From: a virus
IMG/VR virus record: IMGVR_UViG_3300045988_180980
DNA length: 64,000 nucleotides
Strand: one strand, 5' to 3'
In this document: one piece after another, positions 1,660 to 56,340 of the stretch
Position numbering within the stretch: the first letter of the stretch is position 1
Layout of the letters: every line of letters begins with the position of its first letter
Made by a program: the position numbers and the translations under genes
Notes under the pieces: generated by a model
The model's input: the letters and a program-made list of their open reading frames with translations, nothing else
Told to the model about the DNA's origin: nothing
Database searches by the model: none

Positions 1660-2295
1660 ATGGACGATACATTGCTTTTCATTCCGCCCTGCTGTGTGGA
1701 TAGGAAGCTGCCGCAGGCGGTGGTGCAGGCTCCGGCCAGGGCGCTCACGTTCTACACGCACGGCGATGTGACGATGGAGAAGTTATACCGTGCCATCGCA
1801 TTCCTCATCGAGGAGCCGCATGTGATGGTGCTTGCCATGCCCATTGTGCCTGCTGATGTGGCAGTGTTTCTGCAGCAGTGCTTTGAGCGCGGATGGATCA
1901 CCGACCTGGTGCTGTCCACCAGCCGCGACTGTGCGGTGCTCGTGGACAAGTATCTGTGCGACTATACCCGCCATGTGCTCTACACTCCTGCCGACGATGT
2001 GAGCGAGGTGTCTTCGCACCTCGTGCTGTACTCTGCCGGGCAGAGCATAACCATCAGCGGACCCATGTATGAGCGGGCATACCCTGTGAAGCTGGCGGGC
2101 TACTCCCTGGCGTTCTATCCCCACCACGGCCTGTTCACCGACAAGGCCGACTGGGGCAATGCCCTGCGCAACATCCTGTTCCCCGACGTGCTCCGTCACA
2201 GGAAGGTGGCGCTCGGCAAGCAACCCAAGCAGGTGTCGGCAGCGCTCGACAAGTTCCTGCACCTGGAGTTCCCGACATATAATAATGACATATAA
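1660..2295 (+). CDS. hypothetical protein
   Basis: 211-aa ATG ORF packed 11 nt after dnaN. I recognise no motif. Confidence 0.5.
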   Translation: MDDTLLFIPPCCVDRKLPQAVVQAPARALTFYTHGDVTMEKLYRAIAFLIEEPHVMVLAMPIVPADVAVFLQQCFERGWITDLVLSTSRDCAVLVDKYLCDYTRHVLYTPADDVSEVSSHLVLYSAGQSITISGPMYERAYPVKLAGYSLAFYPHHGLFTDKADWGNALRNILFPDVLRHRKVALGKQPKQVSAALDKFLHLEFPTYNNDI

Positions 2296-2316
2296 TAATA
2301 TAGAATAGCAATAGAT

Positions 2317-2631
2317 ATGAACATCCGACCTACCCAATCTTACACTGAACTGCGCCGCTACACCGAGAAATGGCAGTGGGACGACCCCCGCACGGGGCGC
2401 AGGACAACAGGCTACGTGCATCCACAGACAGCGCGGAACGTGCAGCGCATGCCGTTCTACATCAAGTTCCTCACCAAGAGCGGACATGTGGATGAGGGCA
2501 ACTGCGTTTGCCTGTCTGTTGATACCCTGCGCCACCAGCGGCGGGTACAGTTCGTGGAGAGCGGTGAGATAAGGGTGGTCAACGATGTCCTGGTGCTCGA
2601 AGTAGATGGCACCAGATTCATTACGCATTAA
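2317..2631 (+). CDS. hypothetical protein
   Basis: 104-aa ATG ORF, co-oriented with its neighbours. No motif recognised. Confidence 0.45.
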   Translation: MNIRPTQSYTELRRYTEKWQWDDPRTGRRTTGYVHPQTARNVQRMPFYIKFLTKSGHVDEGNCVCLSVDTLRHQRRVQFVESGEIRVVNDVLVLEVDGTRFITH

Positions 2632-2798
2632 GTTAATTATTACGTTGATTGTGGCCGTCTGACGGTCCGCGAGGATAGCGGCGGTGTTAGTTTTTCATAC
2701 AAAAGATACTTCATTTTTTTTAGGTTTTTAGAGGCTCCCACGGTCTGTGAAGATATAGGGAGTATTTGTTGAACATTAAACTATAAAACATATACATT

Positions 2799-3383
2799 AT
2801 GATTACAAGAACAATCAAGAGAATTTGGAATTTTATTCTCAGCGGTTTCAGTGGTCGTCGCCTGCAGAAAAGAATGCTGCAGGGATTTGCCGCGCTTGAC
2901 AGAATAGAGCGAAAAGGCCTTCTGACGTGGATTCGCGAGGGCAGATACCTCCTGCTCGAGCAACCATTTACCACTTCGATTCTCGCTACGGGAAAGAAGG
3001 GAGCCAAGAACATCTTCACGATGGTGGCTCTCTGGCAGAATTTCCACATCTTCCTGGAAGCTGCCGAGCAGATACGGCTCGAGACTGAACTTGCAGCCGT
3101 GCGCAAGGCAAAGAAGGAGCATCCCTCGTTGACCAATGAGGACATACGCCGCATACGCATGAATGCCCGCAACAACATGCCCGAACTGGACCCTGACAAG
3201 ATAGATTATGTCCGCGAGTTCGACCTGTTTGTCATCCGCTCGTCGGCACCCTCGGCACAGGATGCCACCGAGGAGAACGGGCAGCTGGTGGCACTCGGCC
3301 ATTTCGATGGCAAGGAACTGCAGATGGCCATGTATGAGGATGTGAAGTACAACCTGATGCGCGGTGAAGATGAAAATAATTAG
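2799..3383 (+). CDS. hypothetical protein
   Basis: 194-aa ATG ORF that follows an AT-rich intergenic stretch. No motif recognised. Confidence 0.5.
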   Translation: MITRTIKRIWNFILSGFSGRRLQKRMLQGFAALDRIERKGLLTWIREGRYLLLEQPFTTSILATGKKGAKNIFTMVALWQNFHIFLEAAEQIRLETELAAVRKAKKEHPSLTNEDIRRIRMNARNNMPELDPDKIDYVREFDLFVIRSSAPSAQDATEENGQLVALGHFDGKELQMAMYEDVKYNLMRGEDENN

Positions 3384-3633
3384 GAAAATCAGAGAGGCGC
3401 TCATCCACCTGCTTGGTGGCGTCACGCAGGGCGAGAACGAGTACGTGGGCAACATCATGCACGACCTGGGCCGATACAAGTGCCTGCGCGAACTGCAGGG
3501 GTATGCCGATGACCTCAACGGCAAGCCGGGCGACGAGTGGAGCCATGCGATGTACAGGCACATCAGCGAGGAGCTGTGCCGCATGGAGGGGCTGCTGCCC
3601 GATCCCGACGAGGAAGGAGCGCACCCATGCTGA
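3364..3633 (+). CDS. hypothetical protein
   Basis: 89-aa ORF that overlaps the previous stop by 20 nt, an operon-style arrangement. Confidence 0.4.
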   Translation: MKMKIIRKIREALIHLLGGVTQGENEYVGNIMHDLGRYKCLRELQGYADDLNGKPGDEWSHAMYRHISEELCRMEGLLPDPDEEGAHPC

Positions 3634-3830
3634 GAGAGGTGCGGATGTATGCCGTCGTGTGTGACCGATGCGGGCATGAACTGCACGACGGAGACATCAT
3701 AGCCTGGCCCGATGAGGAACAGGCTACCGCAGTGGCGCACCTCTCGGGCTGGGAGGAGGCGGCAGGCAAGTGGTACTGCCCCGACTGCTACACACACAGC
3801 GAAGATACCGGCGCATTGCGCCCCAGATGA
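3627..3830 (+). CDS. small zinc-ribbon-like protein
   Basis: The ATG at 3627 overlaps the preceding stop (ATGCTGA). The protein contains CDRCGHEL...YCPDCY, a CxxC...CxxC pair. Confidence 0.45.
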   Translation: MLREVRMYAVVCDRCGHELHDGDIIAWPDEEQATAVAHLSGWEEAAGKWYCPDCYTHSEDTGALRPR

Positions 3831-8516: not shown

Positions 8517-8708
8517 TCACACCCCGTGCTGCAGCCGTATTCTTCGTGCATATCCCTTCTCCACCAACCCTTCCTCCGTCATCTCATTGCCGTCGGCATA
8601 CCATTTCCCGTTGACCAGCGTCACGGGACGGGTGAACGTGAGTGCGTGTTGCGCTTTGCTGCACCTCGTCAGTGTTTCCTCGAGGTACGCGATGAAGTTA
8701 TCTTCCAT
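8517..8708 (-). CDS. hypothetical protein
   Basis: 63-aa ORF immediately downstream of the methyltransferase on the minus strand. Confidence 0.4.
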   Translation of the reverse strand: MEDNFIAYLEETLTRCSKAQHALTFTRPVTLVNGKWYADGNEMTEEGLVEKGYARRIRLQHGV

Positions 8709-8719
8709 TGTGTATCGTG

Positions 8720-9317
8720 TCAGTTAAACCATTTCACTATTGTCTCGCCTTTGTACCCCTTCTCCCATACGAACCATGCGTAGGCCGCTGCGCTGCTGCC
8801 GTACCTGTCGAAGTCGCCATTCATAGCGCATTTCAGTCGTGACGAACTTACCCAAACGCGGATGGGGGGGGGGGGTAGATTTGAACAGCGCGTGTCGGGC
8901 TTTGCCTTCCAGGAAAGTCAGCTTCAGGAACATCGCCACCTTCTTACCTTCTGGAATGATGCTCAGAGCCTTCTCCACAAACTGCTGCGCATATTTGTAG
9001 GGCGGATTGGTAACGATGTTGCCGTCCCACGCCAAATTATCAATAGCGAGAAAGTCAGCCACCTCGCCATAACCTCTATCCACAAGGTCGCGGCTCACCA
9101 CCTCATACCCTGCTGCCTCCAACACCCTACTCATGTGACCCTCGCCACACGAAGGCTCAAGAATCCTGCCCTCAAACCGCTCCAGTTTGCACAGCCATTC
9201 CGTAGCTTTCGGTTCTGTGGCATAGTAATCCTCCCGCTGCCGTTCCGCGTCCGTATGATTGCTTGCGCCCAACGTCTTGAATACAGCGGCCGAACCGCCT
9301 ACCCAGTCCTTTACCAT
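8720..9317 (-). CDS. SAM-dependent DNA (N6-adenine-type, NPPY) methyltransferase, frame broken at a C12 homopolymer
   Basis: Motif I is ILEPSCGEG and motif IV is IVTNPPYKY. After the C12 run (8864..8875) the annotated frame turns into Arg-rich text. The frame reached by deleting one C reads ...AAYAWFVWEKGYKGETIVKWFN-stop at 8720, which looks like a genuine methyltransferase C-terminus. Confidence 0.75.
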
Positions 9318-9379
9318 TGTGAACCTCCTTTCTGCATTTAATTGAATAGTTCATATCTTTATGAATTTGTTACTCATTT

Positions 9380-9609
9380 ACCCAACCCATCAATGGTTTT
9401 CACCCAACCCTTCAATGGGTGTTTTTTTGTTAAGAGCCGACTCTTTTGATGAAAAGAGCCGACTCTTTTGATAAAATCAATCGGCTCTCCGTTTTTTTTT
9501 GTGCTATACCTATTGTTTTCTGAAACTATACCTATTGTTTGCCTATAGGTATAGGCATCCCTCAAGCCAAACAGATACTTCTGTTTACCTCAAACAGACA
9601 CTTCTGTTT
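9380..9609. repeat. four different 15-19-nt motifs, each tandemly duplicated at 22-23-bp spacing
   Basis: ACCCAACCCwTCAATGG at 9380 and 9402. AAGAGCCGACTCTTTTGAT at 9432 and 9454. CTATACCTATTGTTT at 9504 and 9526. AAACAGAyACTTCTGTTT at 9569 and 9592. Confidence 0.85.
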
Positions 9610-9618
9610 ATGTTCCGC

Positions 9619-47510: not shown

Positions 47511-50500
47511 ATGGCAAAGAAATTTACAGACATCAACGACCTTCTGCGCAAGAAGGACAATGAGGAGGCACGCGAGGAAATAGAGTCCTCGGGTGTGCCG
47601 CAGAACGAGTGCCTGTCTGCCGACGAATTTGTGAAGCAGATAGTCACCCCCATCCAGGAGCTGCAGGCTGATGCCAAGAAGAGTGTCAAGTCCGTCAAGT
47701 TCAATAACATCACCTACGAGCCTGATGCAGACGGTGTGGTGTCGTTCAATCAGATGGTGGAGAGCGACAGTTATGCCATACGACTGGCATCCGACCTCAA
47801 GGGCGACCGTAACATCAAAGAGGGTGACACGCTGACAGCCAACGTGCGCTACATGGCACTGAAGATCACCCAACTGGGCGACCGCGTAAATTATCGTGAC
47901 GTGCCAGGCACACTGCGCATCGACATCAAGAAGGAGGGGACCGACACGTGGCAGAACCGCTACGTCCAGACCAACATCGTGTCACAGGACGAGAATTACG
48001 ATGCAGGGAGTGCGGCTTCCTACCCCGTGAGCGTAGAGATAGGCAAGTATCTGACAGAGGGCCGACAGGACGTGCGCATCAGAGTGACTTCCTACTATGA
48101 GGACGAGAACGGTGTGAAGCGTGAGTTCTTCGGCGACCTCATCTACTCCATCAATGCCGTAAACCTCACCGTGAAGAACCTCACCGACTGGTCGAAGCGC
48201 ATCCTGGCCTCTGACGGTGGATTCCCCTTCTCATTCTCCGTAATGGGAGCCGTTGACAAGAAGCTGCATGTCACCATGACGGGTGCCACGGGCACATGGA
48301 CGATGGAACCGAAGACATTCCTGGCCGACGAGCAGCGACCCGAAGCCAATCCCTACTCGTGGACACAGCAGGAGATTTCGGCTTACGGACTGTTGTCGCA
48401 CGGCGTGCATACCGTCACGGCATGGGTGACGTGCGATGACGGCATGGGCGGCGAATTGTCTTCGGAAGTGCAGGTCAACCGCTTCATGGTGGTAAATGCA
48501 GCCACCGCCTCTCCTGCACAACTGGTACAGCCCTACCTGATGCTCCAGGGCGTGCAGAGTGTGGTGGAGAACTATGTGCGCACGGTCATCTCCAACTTTG
48601 CCGTGTGGGTGCCGAAGAGTGCCGATGCCCCCACTCTGCCTGCCACCGACCCGCTGCCCGTGAGCATCCGTATCACGAATGCCGGTGACGGCGACCTGGA
48701 CTACACGGCTTCCTACTATGTGTCTGAGCAGAAAGTCGTGGTGGGCGAGCGCTACCCGATTGACACCACCATCGAGATTGAGAACTCATCCTCTGGCGAG
48801 AGCCCTGCCTCTTACCAGGCATACTTGCGCATATTTCGATACAACGGCGACGAGGTGGTGAACTTCCTGCGTGAGAGCCAGGGCAACCGCTTTGTGGTGT
48901 TCACCGTGGATAACAAGAACGACTATTCGCCCGTGGCAGGTGCCCACTTCTATCTTGACCCCAAGGTGCGCAACAACACCGAGACGCACTTCCAGACCAT
49001 CGTCAACAAGCAGACGCAGGAGGAAGTGCCTTCTGTGTGGAACGGCTTTTCGGGTACGGGCGATGCCTGGGTGCAGGATGACGATGGCGTGAAGGTGCTC
49101 CGTATTCCGAGCGGACGAACGATTGTCATCGGTTACGAACCGTTTGAAGCTTTCAAAACGAACCCGTCGGCGGCAATGTCGCTTGAGATGGAGTTTGCCG
49201 TGCGCAACATTACCGCCGAAGACGATCCTGTAATCAGTGTGTCGCAAACCATTGAGAGTACGCTGGAGAAACTGGGCATCATCATCAAGCCGCTCACGGG
49301 TGCGGTATGGGCGCAGGAAAAGCAGAACGAGGATGACCAGGACTTCGGCTTCGAGGAAGACAAGCGCGTGCATCTTGTGGTGACGCTCACTCCGGCTCTC
49401 GTGGCCAAGGGCAGCGACGAGTTCAAATGGCAGACACCCAACAAGACTCCTTCCAACCGACCCACCGTGAAGGTGTATGTCAACGGCAAGCCGCAGCGTG
49501 CCGTACAGTATAGTGTCGATACCAACGGCGTGTGGATTCAGGGCGAAGGACACGGCGGCATCCGTCTGGGACACCCGTCGTGCGACCTCGACATCTACAC
49601 CATCCGCTGCTATCGTGGCGTTACGCTGTCGGCACAGAACGTGCTTCAGAACTTCACAGCCACACGCCCCGATGCCGAAACAAAGAACGCCATCCGCCAG
49701 CGCAACGATATACTGGATGGCAATGGGCGCGTCTCTTATCGCAAGGTGAAGGCGAAAAACAAGCGATGCCTGACCCTTGTGGGCACGGACAACTACAAGA
49801 TGAACCAGGACAAGAAGGTGGGCTATGCCTGCTATTGGAACATCGACTACTACGACAACACCGGCAACTACGTGCCTGAACTGTCGGGCACCATAGGCAA
49901 GGCTGCTTATCTGGCTTATGTGGCTGGCACACTCGGCGGCAAGAAGTGTCTGATGAATACTGCTCAGGGAAGCACAGCCAACACGTATTGGTGGAACAAC
50001 GAGCAGACGAAGTGCGATAAAGTCACGTACCGCATCCGCGTCCCCTTCCTTACACTTCATCCCGAATTTGGATGGAAGCCCGAGAAGTCGGACTTCACCG
50101 AGACGGCAGTTGCCTCGTTCCCTCTCTATCTCAACGGCGAGCAGATACAGGGTGCCGACGTGGCTACGCTCTCTGAGACACAGAAGGAGAAGCTGGAGAT
50201 TGAGGTGGTAGATGGATGGATTGACGGCAACGGCATGTATCACGGACAGTTCTACACGCCTGTCGTCGGTGGTCCGAAAGCCACGAAACTCGTCAACAAG
50301 ATCAACTATGCCTCGCCGATGCAGTCGCACAAGATGGGTGCCACGCGCCTCTACAACGACGTGATGAAGGCCGTGTGCAAGGATGAACTGCCCGACTGGT
50401 TTGCGGCGAACCCCGAGGCACGTTTTGCCGTGTACGAGGACTGTTATTACTTCTTCAATCAGCCCGAAGGCGAGAAGGAGCCGGTGTTTGTCGGCTTCGG

Positions 50501-53500
50501 CACATTCGGCTCGGGCAAGTGCGACAAGGCTACGTGGGGATATGACAAGAGCAAGATGTTTGCCTTCGAGGGCCTGAACAACAACCTTCCGCTGTGCGAC
50601 TTCCGCGTACCTGCCGACGAGGATGTGACGTATAGCGTGGATGATGAGTCGTGGGTGTATAACGGCATCAAGTCGTTTGAGTACTCGTTGGGCAAGACGA
50701 ATGCTGACGAAACACCTGTGGCAAAGAACGATGCCCTGTTCCGCCGCTACTGCAACTTCATATATGCCCATGACGTGCGTATGCAGTACTTCCGTGGCGA
50801 CCGTGCCGCGTTTGACGCGCATTATGCCAACGTATATGACCGTGCCACGGCTGTGGGTGCCACGGATGCCGACACGCAATTGCTGGACGAGATGCAGACC
50901 ACGAAATACTGGCTGCGCGACGGTGACGAAGCGTTCCACCTGCTGCGCTTCAACTATGCAACAGGCAAGTTTGTAGATGCGGGCATCTGGACGGATGCCG
51001 ACGGATATAAGCCGGGTGTGCGCAACCTCTCCACGGATGTCATCACGAAAGCCACCTACGAGGAGTGGAAGCAGAGCGAGGATGTGGGCGACTATGCCAA
51101 GCTGAACACCCGTTTCCAAATGGCCATCGCATCGTCGTTCAACGAGCACTGCCGCAAGTATCTCAACAAGAAAAACCACCAGGTACACTACACCCTGGTG
51201 AACTACCTCTATGCCGGTACTGACAACTGCTCTAAGAACACCTATTACACTATAGACATCACCACATCCCAGTGCTGGCTCTATCAGGACGATCTCGACA
51301 CCATATTCAAAACCGACAACAACGGACGACAGACGAAGGTGTATTTCCTCTCGCGCTATTTCGACGTGCAGGACACCGAGGCAGGCCTGAAGAAGCAGAA
51401 GGACTATGAGGGCACGGCTTCGGCATTGTTCAATGTCATGGAGGCGGCATGGGAGACGCTCGACCCAACCGCACTGCCTGCCAATATGCGTGAGGTGCTC
51501 ACGGCGATGTGTACGCTCGTGGGGGCCAACGAGGAGCTTGACGGCCTGACCACCACACAGCGCCAGACACCTTACGGCTGTCTGCATAAGTACTTCTTCG
51601 CTACGCAGAAGTATTTTGCAGAAGTGGCGTGGGCGGAACAGCAGCGCATCCGATACGACTGGCCCGCATCGTGGGGCTACGAGAGTTACGGCAACCAGGC
51701 ACGTGGTGTGCTGGCCGTGACGCAGGGCATAGGCGACCAGCTCGAGAGTGAGGTGCAATACATGACCCGCCGCCTGGCTCTCGTATGTTCGTATGCGGCA
51801 TGGGGCGACTTCTCCAGTGGCGTAAATACAGGCTCGACAGGTCTGGTGGATGCCAGCGCTGGTTTGCAGTTCACGCCTGGCTCGGGGCGCACAGGAGGTG
51901 AATATACGTTCGACCTCGTACCGCATCAGTTCCTCTACCCCTGCGGTGTGCGCGACCGTGCGCTCATCAACCCTCATATCCGCATGATACCGGGGCGGAA
52001 CTACACATTTACCGTCAACCCGGCATCTACGCCTATCCCAGGCGACTCGTCAGTAGGATTGGCCGCTACCAACTACTACCGCTCCATCGGCAACGTGGGC
52101 AATATGGTGGTGGGCAACAACAACTTCACCATCCAAGGTCGCCGCCTGACGGAGTTCATTGCCGAGCCGAAGGCGGGTAGCAGTGCCTTTGCCCCGAAGC
52201 AGATAGATGTGGATGCAGCCAACCTGCAGAGGTTGTCGCTCAATGGCGTAAGCACCTCCAGCGGCACATTCAACCTCTCCAAGGCTTCGCGTCTGCAGAC
52301 ACTCGACCTGCGCGGCACGCGGTACGGACAGGTGCGTATGCCGTCTTCGCCCCAACTCACCGAGGCGCGTTTTGGTGCCGAACTGTCGCAACTGGAGGTG
52401 CGCGACATGCAGCAGTTGCAAACGCTCACGCTGGACGGATATTCCCGCCTGACTTCGCTCACCGTGCTCAACTGCGGGTTTGACACCCTCGCCCTGGTGC
52501 GCGGATGCAGCGAGGCGGCTGCCAAACTGAGCACGTTGCGCATCAACGGAATTGAATGGACGGATGTTGCCCCTGCCATACTATCGTATATGGTGGGCAT
52601 CTCCTACTGCGAGATAGCGGGGCGCATAGCAGTCACGAGCGGACAGAACGTGGATGCCGAACTGAAGCTGGCACTGCTGCGCAAGTTCGGCAACATCGAC
52701 TCTGCCGACAACACCATATATATCATTTATTCGCTCCGTAACGTGACAGGGCTGCAGATCACCACACAGCGTTTTGTCATTGCCGAGGCGGGCGACTATC
52801 CCTACCAGTGCAGCGTGCTGCCGTCGATGGCAAACAACTTCTCCGACATCAGGTGGGAGGTGTCGGCCAACGACTTCAATGTGACTGTGGATGCCGAGAC
52901 GGGTGTGCTGCATGCGCCTATGGTGGGCGAGGAGAGCAACAATCCCACGGCCACGCTCACGGTGACGGCATATCTGACAGGCGGTGGCACAGTGTCGGCC
53001 AGCGTGGTGCTGAAGCTGTTCAACCGCATCCCCAAGCTGGGGGACTTTGCTTACTACAACGGTGAGTTCGACTCGGTGCTTTACCCGGGCAAGACGGTCA
53101 TCGGGTGGGTGTATAAGGTCACGCCGTATGCCGACCTTCCCTCCGACCTGCTCAACGAGTACCTGCAGGACGAGGAGACGGCTGCGCAATACAATGCTGG
53201 CAAGACACTGTACGAAGTGCTCGTTGAGGGTACTGATGATGTGACGCTGCGCACCACCAACGGCGCCAGTTCGTTCAACGTGATGGCATGGGGCATCTAT
53301 CCCGAGGATGCCGGCACGCAGGGCTTCACGCCCGAAGAGCGGGCACCCATTGCCGAGGCGCTGCAGACGACCGATGACAACCTGCTGGACATACCTGACG
53401 TGCGCAACTGTACATCAAGCGGACTGACCGATACCGAAGGTCAACCTACCCGTTACATCCGTGATAACAACGCCTATGACGACAGCACAGCCGACGGCTT

Positions 53501-54212
53501 CCCCAAGTTCGACGGTAATGTTGCTCCTAACAGGTGGGACGGCAGGAGGTGTACGCGGGCCATCGTGGAGCATGCCAACAAGGTGCTGGAGAAGTACGTG
53601 GCCGACGGTGTGATGACCGACAGCGAGGGGCACAACATCTTCGACTACCTGCCTGCCGGACGCGGACATATCATCCCTGAGAACAACGAGGAACTGGCCG
53701 ACCTGCTGGTGGCGCTGGGCAATCTGGGCGGCGGCGACCGCTGGATGCAGTTGGCCTATCCCGCTGCACGTGCCTGTGTGCTGTACGAACCCACCTCGGG
53801 CGGTAAGGCCATCGCGGGCCTTGCATCGGCGTTTGCCAAGGGCAGGTGGTATCTGCACGCTCCTGGCGATGAGTTCCGTCTGTACGTCTTCTTCCGCAAC
53901 AGCCGCGCCCTCTCGCCTGCCGACACAGGTACGCCCACCTCGGAGTTCTCCGACGAAGACAACCCTCTGCGCCCCACCGAGCCCACCGATGCCCGCCGCC
54001 CCTTCTATGCCAATCTGCAAAAAAGGTCCAAGGAGGCAAAATTAAACTGCCCGATAAGCGTACCCGCGCAGCCCGATCGCTGGTCATCCGTTGAGCAAGT
54101 ACGCCTTGCCTCCTGGTATGTCAGTTTCGGCAACGGCAACATCGGCCTCGCCGGCGGCAAGTCTTACAGGTTCCGGGTGCGCCCTGTCGTCGCTTTTAAC
54201 TTCGCCCTTTAG
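47511..54212 (+). CDS. giant tail fibre / receptor-binding protein; DGR target with C-terminal variable region
   Basis: 2233 aa. There are LRR-like repeats at about 52221..52560 and a Big_2-like Ig segment at about 52750..53020. The C-terminus is DUF1566/C-type-lectin-like (WYLHAPGDEFRLYVF ... RWSSVE...RFRVRPVVAF). Its last ~130 nt are repeated as the TR. Confidence 0.85.
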   Translation: MAKKFTDINDLLRKKDNEEAREEIESSGVPQNECLSADEFVKQIVTPIQELQADAKKSVKSVKFNNITYEPDADGVVSFNQMVESDSYAIRLASDLKGDRNIKEGDTLTANVRYMALKITQLGDRVNYRDVPGTLRIDIKKEGTDTWQNRYVQTNIVSQDENYDAGSAASYPVSVEIGKYLTEGRQDVRIRVTSYYEDENGVKREFFGDLIYSINAVNLTVKNLTDWSKRILASDGGFPFSFSVMGAVDKKLHVTMTGATGTWTMEPKTFLADEQRPEANPYSWTQQEISAYGLLSHGVHTVTAWVTCDDGMGGELSSEVQVNRFMVVNAATASPAQLVQPYLMLQGVQSVVENYVRTVISNFAVWVPKSADAPTLPATDPLPVSIRITNAGDGDLDYTASYYVSEQKVVVGERYPIDTTIEIENSSSGESPASYQAYLRIFRYNGDEVVNFLRESQGNRFVVFTVDNKNDYSPVAGAHFYLDPKVRNNTETHFQTIVNKQTQEEVPSVWNGFSGTGDAWVQDDDGVKVLRIPSGRTIVIGYEPFEAFKTNPSAAMSLEMEFAVRNITAEDDPVISVSQTIESTLEKLGIIIKPLTGAVWAQEKQNEDDQDFGFEEDKRVHLVVTLTPALVAKGSDEFKWQTPNKTPSNRPTVKVYVNGKPQRAVQYSVDTNGVWIQGEGHGGIRLGHPSCDLDIYTIRCYRGVTLSAQNVLQNFTATRPDAETKNAIRQRNDILDGNGRVSYRKVKAKNKRCLTLVGTDNYKMNQDKKVGYACYWNIDYYDNTGNYVPELSGTIGKAAYLAYVAGTLGGKKCLMNTAQGSTANTYWWNNEQTKCDKVTYRIRVPFLTLHPEFGWKPEKSDFTETAVASFPLYLNGEQIQGADVATLSETQKEKLEIEVVDGWIDGNGMYHGQFYTPVVGGPKATKLVNKINYASPMQSHKMGATRLYNDVMKAVCKDELPDWFAANPEARFAVYEDCYYFFNQPEGEKEPVFVGFGTFGSGKCDKATWGYDKSKMFAFEGLNNNLPLCDFRVPADEDVTYSVDDESWVYNGIKSFEYSLGKTNADETPVAKNDALFRRYCNFIYAHDVRMQYFRGDRAAFDAHYANVYDRATAVGATDADTQLLDEMQTTKYWLRDGDEAFHLLRFNYATGKFVDAGIWTDADGYKPGVRNLSTDVITKATYEEWKQSEDVGDYAKLNTRFQMAIASSFNEHCRKYLNKKNHQVHYTLVNYLYAGTDNCSKNTYYTIDITTSQCWLYQDDLDTIFKTDNNGRQTKVYFLSRYFDVQDTEAGLKKQKDYEGTASALFNVMEAAWETLDPTALPANMREVLTAMCTLVGANEELDGLTTTQRQTPYGCLHKYFFATQKYFAEVAWAEQQRIRYDWPASWGYESYGNQARGVLAVTQGIGDQLESEVQYMTRRLALVCSYAAWGDFSSGVNTGSTGLVDASAGLQFTPGSGRTGGEYTFDLVPHQFLYPCGVRDRALINPHIRMIPGRNYTFTVNPASTPIPGDSSVGLAATNYYRSIGNVGNMVVGNNNFTIQGRRLTEFIAEPKAGSSAFAPKQIDVDAANLQRLSLNGVSTSSGTFNLSKASRLQTLDLRGTRYGQVRMPSSPQLTEARFGAELSQLEVRDMQQLQTLTLDGYSRLTSLTVLNCGFDTLALVRGCSEAAAKLSTLRINGIEWTDVAPAILSYMVGISYCEIAGRIAVTSGQNVDAELKLALLRKFGNIDSADNTIYIIYSLRNVTGLQITTQRFVIAEAGDYPYQCSVLPSMANNFSDIRWEVSANDFNVTVDAETGVLHAPMVGEESNNPTATLTVTAYLTGGGTVSASVVLKLFNRIPKLGDFAYYNGEFDSVLYPGKTVIGWVYKVTPYADLPSDLLNEYLQDEETAAQYNAGKTLYEVLVEGTDDVTLRTTNGASSFNVMAWGIYPEDAGTQGFTPEERAPIAEALQTTDDNLLDIPDVRNCTSSGLTDTEGQPTRYIRDNNAYDDSTADGFPKFDGNVAPNRWDGRRCTRAIVEHANKVLEKYVADGVMTDSEGHNIFDYLPAGRGHIIPENNEELADLLVALGNLGGGDRWMQLAYPAARACVLYEPTSGGKAIAGLASAFAKGRWYLHAPGDEFRLYVFFRNSRALSPADTGTPTSEFSDEDNPLRPTEPTDARRPFYANLQKRSKEAKLNCPISVPAQPDRWSSVEQVRLASWYVSFGNGNIGLAGGKSYRFRVRPVVAFNFAL
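54065..54195 (+). repeat. DGR variable repeat (VR)
   Basis: 131 nt homologous to 55002..55129. The flanks are identical (20 nt ATCGCTGGTCATCCGTTGAG and 29 nt CAGGTTCCGGGTGCGCCCTGTCGTCGCTT). In the diverged centre most TR adenines are replaced. Confidence 0.8.
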
Positions 54213-54885: not shown

Positions 54886-56340
54886 ATGATTCGCGGAAGT
54901 GTATCACTGGAGATGTTAGAAGGGGGGCTTACCTATCATGGGCTTCGGTCATACGGACGGGAGACCCTGAATGGTTACGAAGATGCAAAGCCCCAATACG
55001 ACGCGCAGACCAATCGCTGGTCATCCGTTGAGAGCAACCGGTCCAACGCCTGGAATTGCAATTTCAACGACGGCAACCTCAACAACAACAACAAGTATAA
55101 CAGGTTCCGGGTGCGCCCTGTCGTCGCTTATGACACTCCTGCCGACTTCCTCAATCTCGTGTTTGCCGCTTTCCATGACTGCTGCCGCACCAAGCGTACC
55201 AGTGCAGAGTGCATAGCCTATTGTGAGCGGGCGCAGCAGGACCTGCCGCTGCTGGCTCACGAACTATATACAGGCACCTACCAGCCTGGCCCCAGCACGT
55301 GTTTCCTGGTCAAATATCCCAAGTACCGCGAGGTGTTTGCTGCCGGATTCCGCGATCGTATCGTACACCACTTCATCTATCTTCTGCTCAACCCCTGTTT
55401 CGAGGAGCGCTTTGTGGCGCAAGGCAATGTGTCGTTCAACTGCCGCAAGGGCTTCGGCACACTGGCAGCGCAGCAGGCGGCATTCGAGGCCATCCGTACC
55501 GCAACCGACAATTACCGCACGCCTGCCGTGGTATATCGGGGCGACCTGGTGTCCTTCTTCATGTCCATAGACAAGCGCATCCTGTGGAGCAGGCTGGAGC
55601 CGTTCATACACGAGGAGTACCACGGACCCTATCTCACCCAGCTGCTCACGGTGACACGCACCGTGGTGTTCCATTGTCCCGAGAAGAACTGCCTGTTCAG
55701 TACCGACCCAGCCGAATGGGCGCTGCACGTGCCTGTCCATAAGTCGCTCTTCACCAACGGCGACTCTTTCGGTATGCCTATCGGCAATCTCACTACACAG
55801 ATATTCGCCAACTTCCTCATGTCCTTCTTCGACGAGTTCGTCATCCGATGGATGAAGGGTCACGGACTGGACGTGCACTACGTCCGCTTTGTGGACGACT
55901 TCCTGTTCATCTGTCGCAACAAACACTTGCTCAAGTGCCTGATAGCCGACGCAGCGGTGTTCCTGCAGAGCGAACTTGGCCTGACGCTCCACTTCGACAA
56001 GCATCATTTCCAGCCCGCCGCACACGGAGTGCTCTTCGTGGGCGCTTATCTCAAGAACTGGCGCATGTATCTCTCTGGCCGCACCGTGGCACGCTTCATC
56101 GAGCGCATGCACGGATTCGACGGCATGCTGCTGAACAAGCAGTGCATCACGCTGGCCGACACGCAGAGGATGGAACAGGTGGTGAACTCCTACCTGGGAT
56201 TCCTGAACGGGAAGCGCACCTACAACATACGCCGGGCGGCACTCGCAGCCATGTGCCCACGCTTCTATGACCATGCCTACATACGCGGCCGCTACACCTC
56301 AATACGCTCACGCCGCAGGCTGAAAACGGCATCATTGTAA
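54886..56340 (+). CDS. DGR reverse transcriptase (the ORF includes the TR in frame)
   Basis: PKYREVFAAGFRDRIVHH, NCRKGFGTLAA, GMPIGNLTTQIFANF (the DGR-type IGxxxSQ block, 55780..55800), YVRFVDDFLFI (catalytic xVDD) and LFVGAYL are all present. There is no in-frame ATG between 54886 and the RT domain. Confidence 0.9.
   Translation: MIRGSVSLEMLEGGLTYHGLRSYGRETLNGYEDAKPQYDAQTNRWSSVESNRSNAWNCNFNDGNLNNNNKYNRFRVRPVVAYDTPADFLNLVFAAFHDCCRTKRTSAECIAYCERAQQDLPLLAHELYTGTYQPGPSTCFLVKYPKYREVFAAGFRDRIVHHFIYLLLNPCFEERFVAQGNVSFNCRKGFGTLAAQQAAFEAIRTATDNYRTPAVVYRGDLVSFFMSIDKRILWSRLEPFIHEEYHGPYLTQLLTVTRTVVFHCPEKNCLFSTDPAEWALHVPVHKSLFTNGDSFGMPIGNLTTQIFANFLMSFFDEFVIRWMKGHGLDVHYVRFVDDFLFICRNKHLLKCLIADAAVFLQSELGLTLHFDKHHFQPAAHGVLFVGAYLKNWRMYLSGRTVARFIERMHGFDGMLLNKQCITLADTQRMEQVVNSYLGFLNGKRTYNIRRAALAAMCPRFYDHAYIRGRYTSIRSRRRLKTASL
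55002..55129 (+). repeat. DGR template repeat (TR)
   Basis: AAC-rich (…AAC CTC AAC AAC AAC AAC AAG TAT AAC…) homologue of the VR, located between avd and the RT domain. Confidence 0.8.

Follow-up and report, generated by a model that had tools for sequence, protein, structure and literature searches.

A length-variable poly-C run marks a probable contingency locus in the orphan methyltransferase gene of an uncultivated gut phage

The IMG/VR virus record IMGVR_UViG_3300045988_180980, analysed as a stretch of 64,000 nucleotides (hereafter the window), encodes a small methyltransferase on its minus strand (gene 9317..8720). The coding strand of this gene contains an uninterrupted run of twelve cytosines (C12) at 8864..8875, exactly where a preliminary description drawn from the letters of the sequence had placed it. 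Across the 64-kb window it is the only homopolymer of at least ten bases, the next longest being T8, T9 and T8. In dinucleotide-preserving shuffles the C10 word is expected 0.05 times, and the observed count was reached in 0 of 100 shuffles. Lying inside an open reading frame (ORF) and longer than expected by chance, the run has the repeat character of a simple-sequence-repeat contingency locus, and in related phages the same site varies in length.

The encoded protein carries motif I (ILEPSCGEG, aa 52-60) followed by motif IV (NPPY, aa 104-107), both invariant in 36 homologues and arranged as in gamma-class N6-adenine methyltransferases (motif I, then (N/D)PP(Y/F)). Searches against Pfam, NCBIfam and PDB sequences returned generic S-adenosylmethionine-methyltransferase matches below threshold only, with no Pfam or NCBIfam model at cut-off. 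Homologues are numerous: at least 7945 proteins reach E <= 1e-3 among the 8000 candidates scored, and 652 GenBank phage records, from phages of Listeria, Staphylococcus, Escherichia, Vibrio and Campylobacter, hold homologues with identities of at most 52%, mostly annotated as DNA methyltransferase. With both motifs present and a match to the PHROG family phrog_799 (DNA methyltransferase), the earlier identification of a small NPPY amino-methyltransferase on a phage is borne out.

The fold was modelled on P0003, a homologue 88% identical to the window enzyme (AlphaFold2; pLDDT 69, pTM 0.72), giving a model of moderate quality. The closest PDB folds retrieved by Foldseek were a small-domain methyltransferase, TrmM, M.TaqI, M.BseCI and CamA (E 1e-6 to 6e-4, TMq 0.47-0.58), which at this model quality corresponds to a class I Rossmann-type fold resembling M.TaqI. 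No target-recognition domain was found in the 197-aa protein, which ends after the catalytic core; on the model, it amounts to the bare core of a gamma-type NPPY amino-methyltransferase and lacks a recognition domain. The enzyme probably modifies adenine at N6, and DNA is its likely substrate as judged from context; the top Foldseek matches include the tRNA m6A enzyme TrmM, and the label 'DNA methyltransferase' derives from PHROG and from the annotations of GenBank homologues.

Tract length determines which C-terminus is read. As sequenced, C12 leads translation into an Arg-rich tail (...PPPHPRLGKF...SEMV), and phrog_799 aligns with aa 3-152 only (175.8 bits). Changing the tract in silico to C8, C11 or C14, and only to these lengths, gives proteins of 197, 198 and 199 aa that end in IRVWVSSSRLKCAMNGDF...KWFN and stop at 8720, with 11 nt between this stop and the ATG at 8708; the family match then extends over aa 3-198 (232.6 bits). 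Since phrog_799 spans the whole of the repaired protein but breaks off at aa 152 of the as-sequenced one, the frame that the family conserves is the repaired frame. Tracts of C7, C10 or C13 run into a stop after 6-7 codons, C10 and C13 ending after PPPSAFG, and C6, C9, C12 and C15 enter the unconserved Arg-rich tail in the +1 frame. Length changes accordingly shift the gene between its conserved frame and truncated or aberrant products, as in a contingency locus.

The preliminary description was thus right that the tail lies outside the family frame and that tract length decides whether a full-length enzyme is made. It had named C11 and C14 as the in-frame lengths; both do restore the frame, but the natural in-frame length is C8. 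Exactly two prolines (PP) occupy the tract site in 115 of 120 full-length homologues, which makes ACC CCC CCC ATY (Thr-Pro-Pro-Ile) the ancestral in-frame state. Judged by this comparison, the window tract exceeds the family state by four cytosines (C8+4) and the tract of its closest relatives by three (C9+3), and represents an expanded and nominally out-of-frame (OFF) allele.

In the P0003 model, the tract encodes a Pro-Pro(-Pro) loop (residues 149-150) just ahead of the beta-strand IRVWV (152-156), and further strands are predicted at 178-184 and 192-196. Any frameshift at the tract therefore entails loss of three core beta-strands of the Rossmann-type core, and both out-of-frame products (-1 and +1) should, on this model, be inactive through loss of these last three core strands. 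Two other ways of reading the locus were rejected. A functional C-terminus in the +1 frame is contradicted by 3 synonymous against 8 non-synonymous codon differences between the window and its relatives, and also by stops in L001, L087 and L139, the last being the closest relative (~90% nucleotide identity over 5 kb). For an antisense ORF that starts at the tract (8862..9341, plus strand; MGGGG...), the evidence of family, fold and selection lies entirely on the minus strand.

Relatives of the window comprise IMG/VR contigs of 50-100 kb and human-gut metagenome contigs, two of them within Prevotella metagenome-assembled genomes (MAGs). Exact-pattern scans with the flanks TCTA..ATYCGYGT (C6 scanned in IMG/VR only) recovered 4 C6, 12 C7, 20 C8 and 11 C9 tracts from IMG/VR, 13 C7, 26 C8 and 9 C9 tracts from metagenome contigs, and two C8 tracts, with no C7 or C9, from GTDB genomes. 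Coverage of the SPAdes contigs reaches 635x for C7, 714x for C8 and 347x for C9, and C7, C8 and C9 occur alongside one another in the same series of assemblies (ERZ1034xxx, ERZ1026xxx, OB.., OI..). When alleles were anchored on NPPY and IRVWV and then de-duplicated, with noisy Logan assemblies not relied on, 70 unique uninterrupted alleles remained: 4 of C6, 17 of C7, 34 of C8, 14 of C9 and the C12 of the window. Thirty-six of these 70 (51%) are out of frame, compared with none of the 27 unique alleles in which the run is interrupted (CCCCACCC, ACTCCCCCC and others; Fisher p=2.5e-7). Products in the +1 frame form at least 70 protein clusters at 90% identity, one of which has 1245 members. In four +1-frame protein clusters (P0140, P0168, P0175 and P0190) the motif STPTHS implies a C4-to-C5 slip in the interrupted ACC CCC ACC C, so that short runs can shift occasionally too.

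Among the relatives, tract length also differs between genomes that are otherwise nearly identical. The flanks of L090 (C9) and L147 (C8) agree at 3000 of 3000 bases, those of L018 (C8), L154 (C7) and L168 (C9) show no more than 2 mismatches, and four identical 583-nt gene sequences were each found with two tract lengths, which is the polymorphism characteristic of a contingency locus. Frame shows no phylogenetic signal: 24 of 70 alleles match their nearest neighbour in frame, where 25.1 are expected (p=0.6), and the fraction of pairs with equal length stays at ~0.34, the random value, at every divergence. Nearly all C7 and C9 loci have both flanks free of stops in the conserved frame, and the few stop-bearing exceptions occur among in-frame (ON) alleles too. 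Entropy of the tail by codon position is 0.16/0.12/0.73 in OFF and 0.23/0.16/0.73 in ON alleles, and in the conserved frame the window and L139 differ by 10 synonymous codons and 1 non-synonymous codon. Given identical flanks, the lack of phylogenetic signal and intact, constrained tails, the out-of-frame alleles are recent or reversible rather than decaying pseudogenes. The preliminary description had proposed a slipped-strand tract and had named the lack of a homopolymer at this position in relatives as part of what would refute it; relatives have one at the exact site, and independent Illumina assemblies of near-identical genomes show it at C6-C9, as a slipped-strand switch would predict.

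Length variation of this kind is specific to G/C runs in the phage group. When genome pairs with 99% identity or more are aligned, length differs in 17 of the 27 G/C runs of seven or more bases, the differences being confined to runs of 7-9, and in none of the 53 A/T runs of 6-8. Across all loci in 398 kb of non-redundant sequence from relatives, G/C runs depart from a first-order Markov expectation in two directions: observed against expected counts are 678/1060 at length 4, 15/47 at length 6, 22/2.1 at length 8 and 6/0.4 at length 9, a bimodal spectrum in which lengths 4-6 are depleted 1.6-3x and lengths 8-9 enriched 10-15x, and A/T runs match expectation. The runs are concentrated in the methyltransferase gene and in an adjacent PAPS-reductase-like gene (PF01507), the additional ones mainly in the latter, which in many relatives stands directly upstream of the methyltransferase, with a second methyltransferase downstream, and which is absent from the window and from L139. 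This combination, few short runs but a separate class of 8-9-mers located in accessory DNA-modification genes, marks contingency tracts that are maintained, not random errors. With Illumina coverage in the hundreds, errors in the consensus are not credible, and a batch or technology artefact was rejected, since C7, C8 and C9 share ENA assembly series and A/T runs are constant.

The PAPS-reductase-like gene, recognisable by an SGGKDS PP-loop, itself contains three in-frame poly-G tracts coding for GGG and one more near its 5' end. In L016 (gene 1674..2939) these include G8 at 2514, G8 at 2642 and G9 at 2789; in L196 the gene occupies 2482..3699. Its tracts vary among near-identical contigs, with n=5-8 in CGAAAC-Gn-TATTCA and n=4-9 in Gn-CAAATCGA. 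Other long runs in the group include five G7-G8 tracts within 400 bp of L056 (211-613), a C19 tract in L124 (7660-7678, GATATT-C19-AAAAGA) at a place where L021 and L022 have G9 and G10, and a C10 tract in L146 (1582-1591). Assembly quality is uneven: the Logan contig L197 (ERR4087902) differs from L196 (ERR4087905) by three 1-nt deletions in A4-A6 runs and is otherwise identical to it. These deletions (L196 positions 2438, 3481 and 6405) split a 664-aa gene and truncate the PAPS-reductase gene, and look like assembly or sequencing error. Both contigs keep C9 in the methyltransferase.

Taken together, the data lead us to regard the poly-C run as probably a slipped-strand hypermutable site, that is, a contingency locus, in a phage orphan NPPY methyltransferase. 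Replication slippage would add or remove cytosines in the tract: C8 would give the full 197-aa enzyme and C11 or C14 an in-frame enzyme with extra prolines, C7 or C10 would truncate it a few codons downstream, and C6, C9 or C12 would direct translation into the unconserved +1 frame. Switching would be reversible within one population, and its pay-off may be bet-hedging between methylated and unmethylated virions, the former protected from host restriction-modification, the latter able to escape methylation-dependent restriction or to avoid a cost.

Several observations weigh against such a switch. The C12 tract stands alone, no tract of C10 or longer having been found at the methyltransferase site in the IMG/VR, metagenome and GTDB scans, and the protein collection holds only one C10-type protein and one SPPPH protein. 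The count of twelve comes from the assembly and may be off by one in either direction, and some public assemblies, such as L197, are error-prone. The purifying-selection signal in the tail could be imported in part by recombination from ON lineages. In addition, the window belongs to a sub-lineage marked by ..ALFKSTPP.. (hereafter FKST) in which every sampled relative allele is C9 and thus in the same +1 frame as C12 (L139, L161, L196/197 and L198-200; protein clusters P0121, P0122, P0124 and P0136), a state seen in at least six assemblies and four protein clusters; no in-frame FKST member was found among the sampled alleles. This uniform +1 frame is not predicted by fast, unbiased switching. 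In the FKST tail, third positions of conserved-frame codons nonetheless account for 14 of the 16 variable sites. The OFF state could be ecologically favoured in this sub-lineage, with recombination importing tails selected in ON lineages, or the C9 and C12 alleles could be leaky through a +1 slip of tRNA-Pro or through RNA-polymerase slippage.

Against this background three rival explanations have to be weighed. The window might carry a true tract of C11, or of another in-frame length, miscounted through a base-calling or assembly error, the methyltransferase being intact with three prolines. No sequencing platform reads a 12-base G/C homopolymer easily, none of the more than 150 related loci shares C12, and homopolymer errors do exist in some public assemblies of the phage group. 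Yet the window appears clean of indels: its ORFs of 2233, 1853, 1056, 930 and 701 aa, the longest spanning 6.7 and 5.5 kb, are intact, no other frameshift is present, and the 3-nt difference in the tract is the sole in-gene indel relative to L139. The closest relatives, moreover, read C9 in the same +1 frame in at least six independent assemblies made with three assemblers, and out-of-frame lengths in relatives are real at 100-700x Illumina coverage. A miscount is therefore unlikely in our judgement and, even if true, would leave the family-wide hypervariability of the site standing. Under recoding, C9 and C12 would still yield a normal protein, either by RNA-polymerase slippage or by a tRNA-Pro +1 slip on the terminal CCC-C; the latter would give exactly the C8/C11 product, and tract length would tune dosage instead of acting as an off-switch. 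CCC-C is a classic site for +1 shifts, and ribosomes stall on PPP; the +1 frame is common to all FKST alleles, from which the window departs by exactly +3, and the position-3 bias of the FKST tail also speaks for recoding. Frameshift suppression has also been reported at the phase-variable repeat of a mod gene (bioRxiv 10.64898/2026.04.01.715767). On the other side, the family mode is the in-frame C8, and -1 as well as +1 alleles occur without phylogenetic structure. For the 84 nt past the tract the folding energy is -20.9 kcal/mol, weaker than the -25.0 kcal/mol averaged over shuffles (z=+1.38), offering no stimulatory structure, third-position variability directly after the tract is unremarkable, and the next 0-frame codon, CAT, is neither a stop nor obviously slow. 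Because a downstream stimulatory structure is lacking and the +1-frame peptide is unconserved, recoding ranks as a minority explanation, and we consider it quite unlikely.

The remaining alternative is that the site is a neutral hot spot in a dispensable gene, the out-of-frame alleles being ordinary loss-of-function mutations on the way to decay, with no role in switching. It would fit the finding that half of the natural alleles are out of frame, the replacement of the run by interrupted synonymous codons in many relatives, and the location of the gene in a variable accessory module. It sits poorly with the intact flanks of OFF alleles, whose tails show the same codon-position constraint as those of ON alleles, with the confinement of frameshifts to the uninterrupted run, with lengths that centre on C8 (C6-C9) and do not drift, and with the enrichment of G/C runs of 8-9 (10-15x) beside depleted runs of 4-6, which indicates that runs are maintained. 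We hold this explanation to be improbable.

The contingency-locus reading has precedents, and its mechanism very probably matches that of simple-sequence-repeat contingency loci, a known kind found here in a phage methyltransferase. The closest of them is a phage contingency locus in a DNA-modification gene, the A-run of the T2 alpha-glucosyltransferase gene agt, which toggles DNA glucosylation and trades sensitivity to TgvAB against sensitivity to McrBC (Gomez, Barrick & Waters, bioRxiv 10.1101/2025.10.21.683753). Both systems place a mononucleotide run inside a phage DNA-modification gene, where slippage by +/-1 inactivates and restores the T2 enzyme and would do the same here, and in both a trade-off is proposed between defences that hit modified and unmodified DNA. 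They differ in that the present case involves a G/C run, a methyltransferase and an uncultivated gut phage, whereas T2 has an A run in a glucosyltransferase; in that the evidence here is cross-sample polymorphism, not measured reversion rates; and in that about half of the natural samples have an OFF allele as their consensus, compared with minority variants of ~1e-3 for T2 agt. In Campylobacter phages, coding-region polyG tracts reportedly give mixed ON/OFF progeny. Those tracts act on receptor-binding genes and host range, whereas the tracts of the window group lie in DNA-modification genes; the hypermutability of polyG tracts in the receptor-binding genes is mentioned, by way of a citation of Sorensen et al. 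(Cell Rep 2021), in PMC12823448 (ref. 58).

Among bacterial phase-variable methyltransferases, such as Type III mod (PMC5909438), the Type IIG gene cj0031 with its polyG tract (PMC4889913) and homopolymer-bearing methyltransferases of H. pylori (PMC3936762), a repeat within an N6-adenine methyltransferase ORF likewise switches frame, and natural isolates often carry OFF alleles. The window enzyme differs from these in being a 197-aa phage orphan without a target-recognition domain or a Res or HsdR/HsdS partner. No recognisable restriction gene (Res/HsdR/HsdS) was found near the methyltransferase, nor does it stand in a Type I or Type III context, and the comparison with phasevarions made in the preliminary description, a term that implies an epigenetic regulon and a Type I/III (or IIG) restriction-modification system of the cell, is not supported in its strict sense. 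Enzymes of the M.TaqI/TrmM type share the order of motif I before NPPY and the fold (matches to M.TaqI, M.BseCI and TrmM at E 1e-6 to 1e-5), but sequence identity is 10-21% and the window methyltransferase lacks a C-terminal recognition domain. Methylation and Type IV restriction can be antagonistic, as with Type III Mod and Mrr (PMC3152355), and by analogy such antagonism offers a plausible reason why the OFF state can pay. No repeat-switched phage methyltransferase was reported in the full-text literature searched, although absence there is no proof.

A broader and distinctly more tentative proposal is that this widespread human-gut phage group, associated with Prevotella MAGs, might run a 'modification phasome'. 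Several independent G/C tracts, one located in the orphan methyltransferase and another three or four in the PAPS-reductase-like gene beside it, would flip so that every burst yields virions of differing modification state, hedging classical against modification-dependent restriction, and the FKST +1 allele might additionally be a leaky, low-dose state. The orphan methyltransferases of phages are commonly regarded as anti-restriction tools that act constitutively. Should phages of a common gut group control both this gene and the modification gene beside it through mutational switches, the epigenetic state of a phage would be a bet-hedged, heterogeneous trait, which would affect host-range prediction, the matching of phages and hosts by methylation motifs in metagenomes and the design of phage therapy, and frameshifted 'pseudogenes' at G/C runs in viral metagenomes should not be automatically corrected or discarded.

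Table 1. Features of the methyltransferase locus in the window (ORF, open reading frame; RBS, ribosome-binding site)
Feature	Position	Strand	Remarks
Hypermutable C12 tract (coding strand; G12 on the plus strand)	8864..8875	-	C6-C9 at this site in relatives
ORF as sequenced, 197 aa	8724..9317	-	Tail HPRLGKF...SEMV in the +1 frame, unconserved, stops in relatives
N-terminal 147 codons of the methyltransferase, ATG at 9317, motifs I and IV	8876..9317	-	phrog_799 match, 2e-68; Foldseek matches to M.TaqI, M.BseCI and TrmM
Conserved C-terminal frame, IRVWVSSSRLKCAMNGDF...KWFN, stop TGA 8722..8720	8720..8863	-	Purifying selection in this frame
63-aa ORF downstream of the methyltransferase, same direction	8517..8708	-	Homologous 63-aa gene called in relatives
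Intergenic region, presumed promoter/RBS region of the methyltransferase	9318..9618	-	PAPS-reductase-like gene here in many relatives

The methyltransferase sits within a short minus-strand module (Table 1) of a window whose other genes are those of a phage: a tape-measure protein, an S49 protease, a reverse transcriptase, a sliding-clamp-like processivity factor, a primase and a thymidylate-synthase-like protein. Neither the 63-aa ORF next to the methyltransferase nor a neighbouring 298-aa ORF has a Pfam or PHROG match. Exact-protein look-ups of the as-sequenced methyltransferase, its 664-aa neighbour and its 63-aa neighbour gave no match, and blastn of the 1-kb methyltransferase region against GenBank phages gave none either. 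No integrase was seen among the window ORFs scanned, which thus give no indication of a lysogenic phase.

Upstream of the methyltransferase, the intergenic sequence at ~9377-9490 (minus strand) contains tandem direct repeats, ATCAAAAGAGTCGGCTCTT twice and CATTGA(A/T)GGGTTGGGT(G/A)AA twice, and a hairpin, GAGAGCCGA/TCGGCTCT, beside an A9 run (9492..9500, T9 on the plus strand). In L139 most of this region has been lost or rearranged; it might act as a terminator or an operator-like element.

Elsewhere in the window, the ORF at 54886..56340 (plus strand) has a reverse-transcriptase domain (RVT_1, 2.8e-10) and lies near one copy of a 131-nt repeat pair that is 78% identical. The variable copy, at 54065-54200, lies at the 3' end of ORF 47511..54212, and the template copy is at 55002-55134. 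Of the 29 mismatches between them, 18 fall on adenines of the copy adjacent to the reverse transcriptase, in which AAC AAC AAC AAC aligns with CTC GCC GGC GGC at the C-terminus of the 2233-aa protein. The reverse-transcriptase ORF and the repeat pair are likely a diversity-generating retroelement, which would equip this phage with another diversification device, independent of the first.

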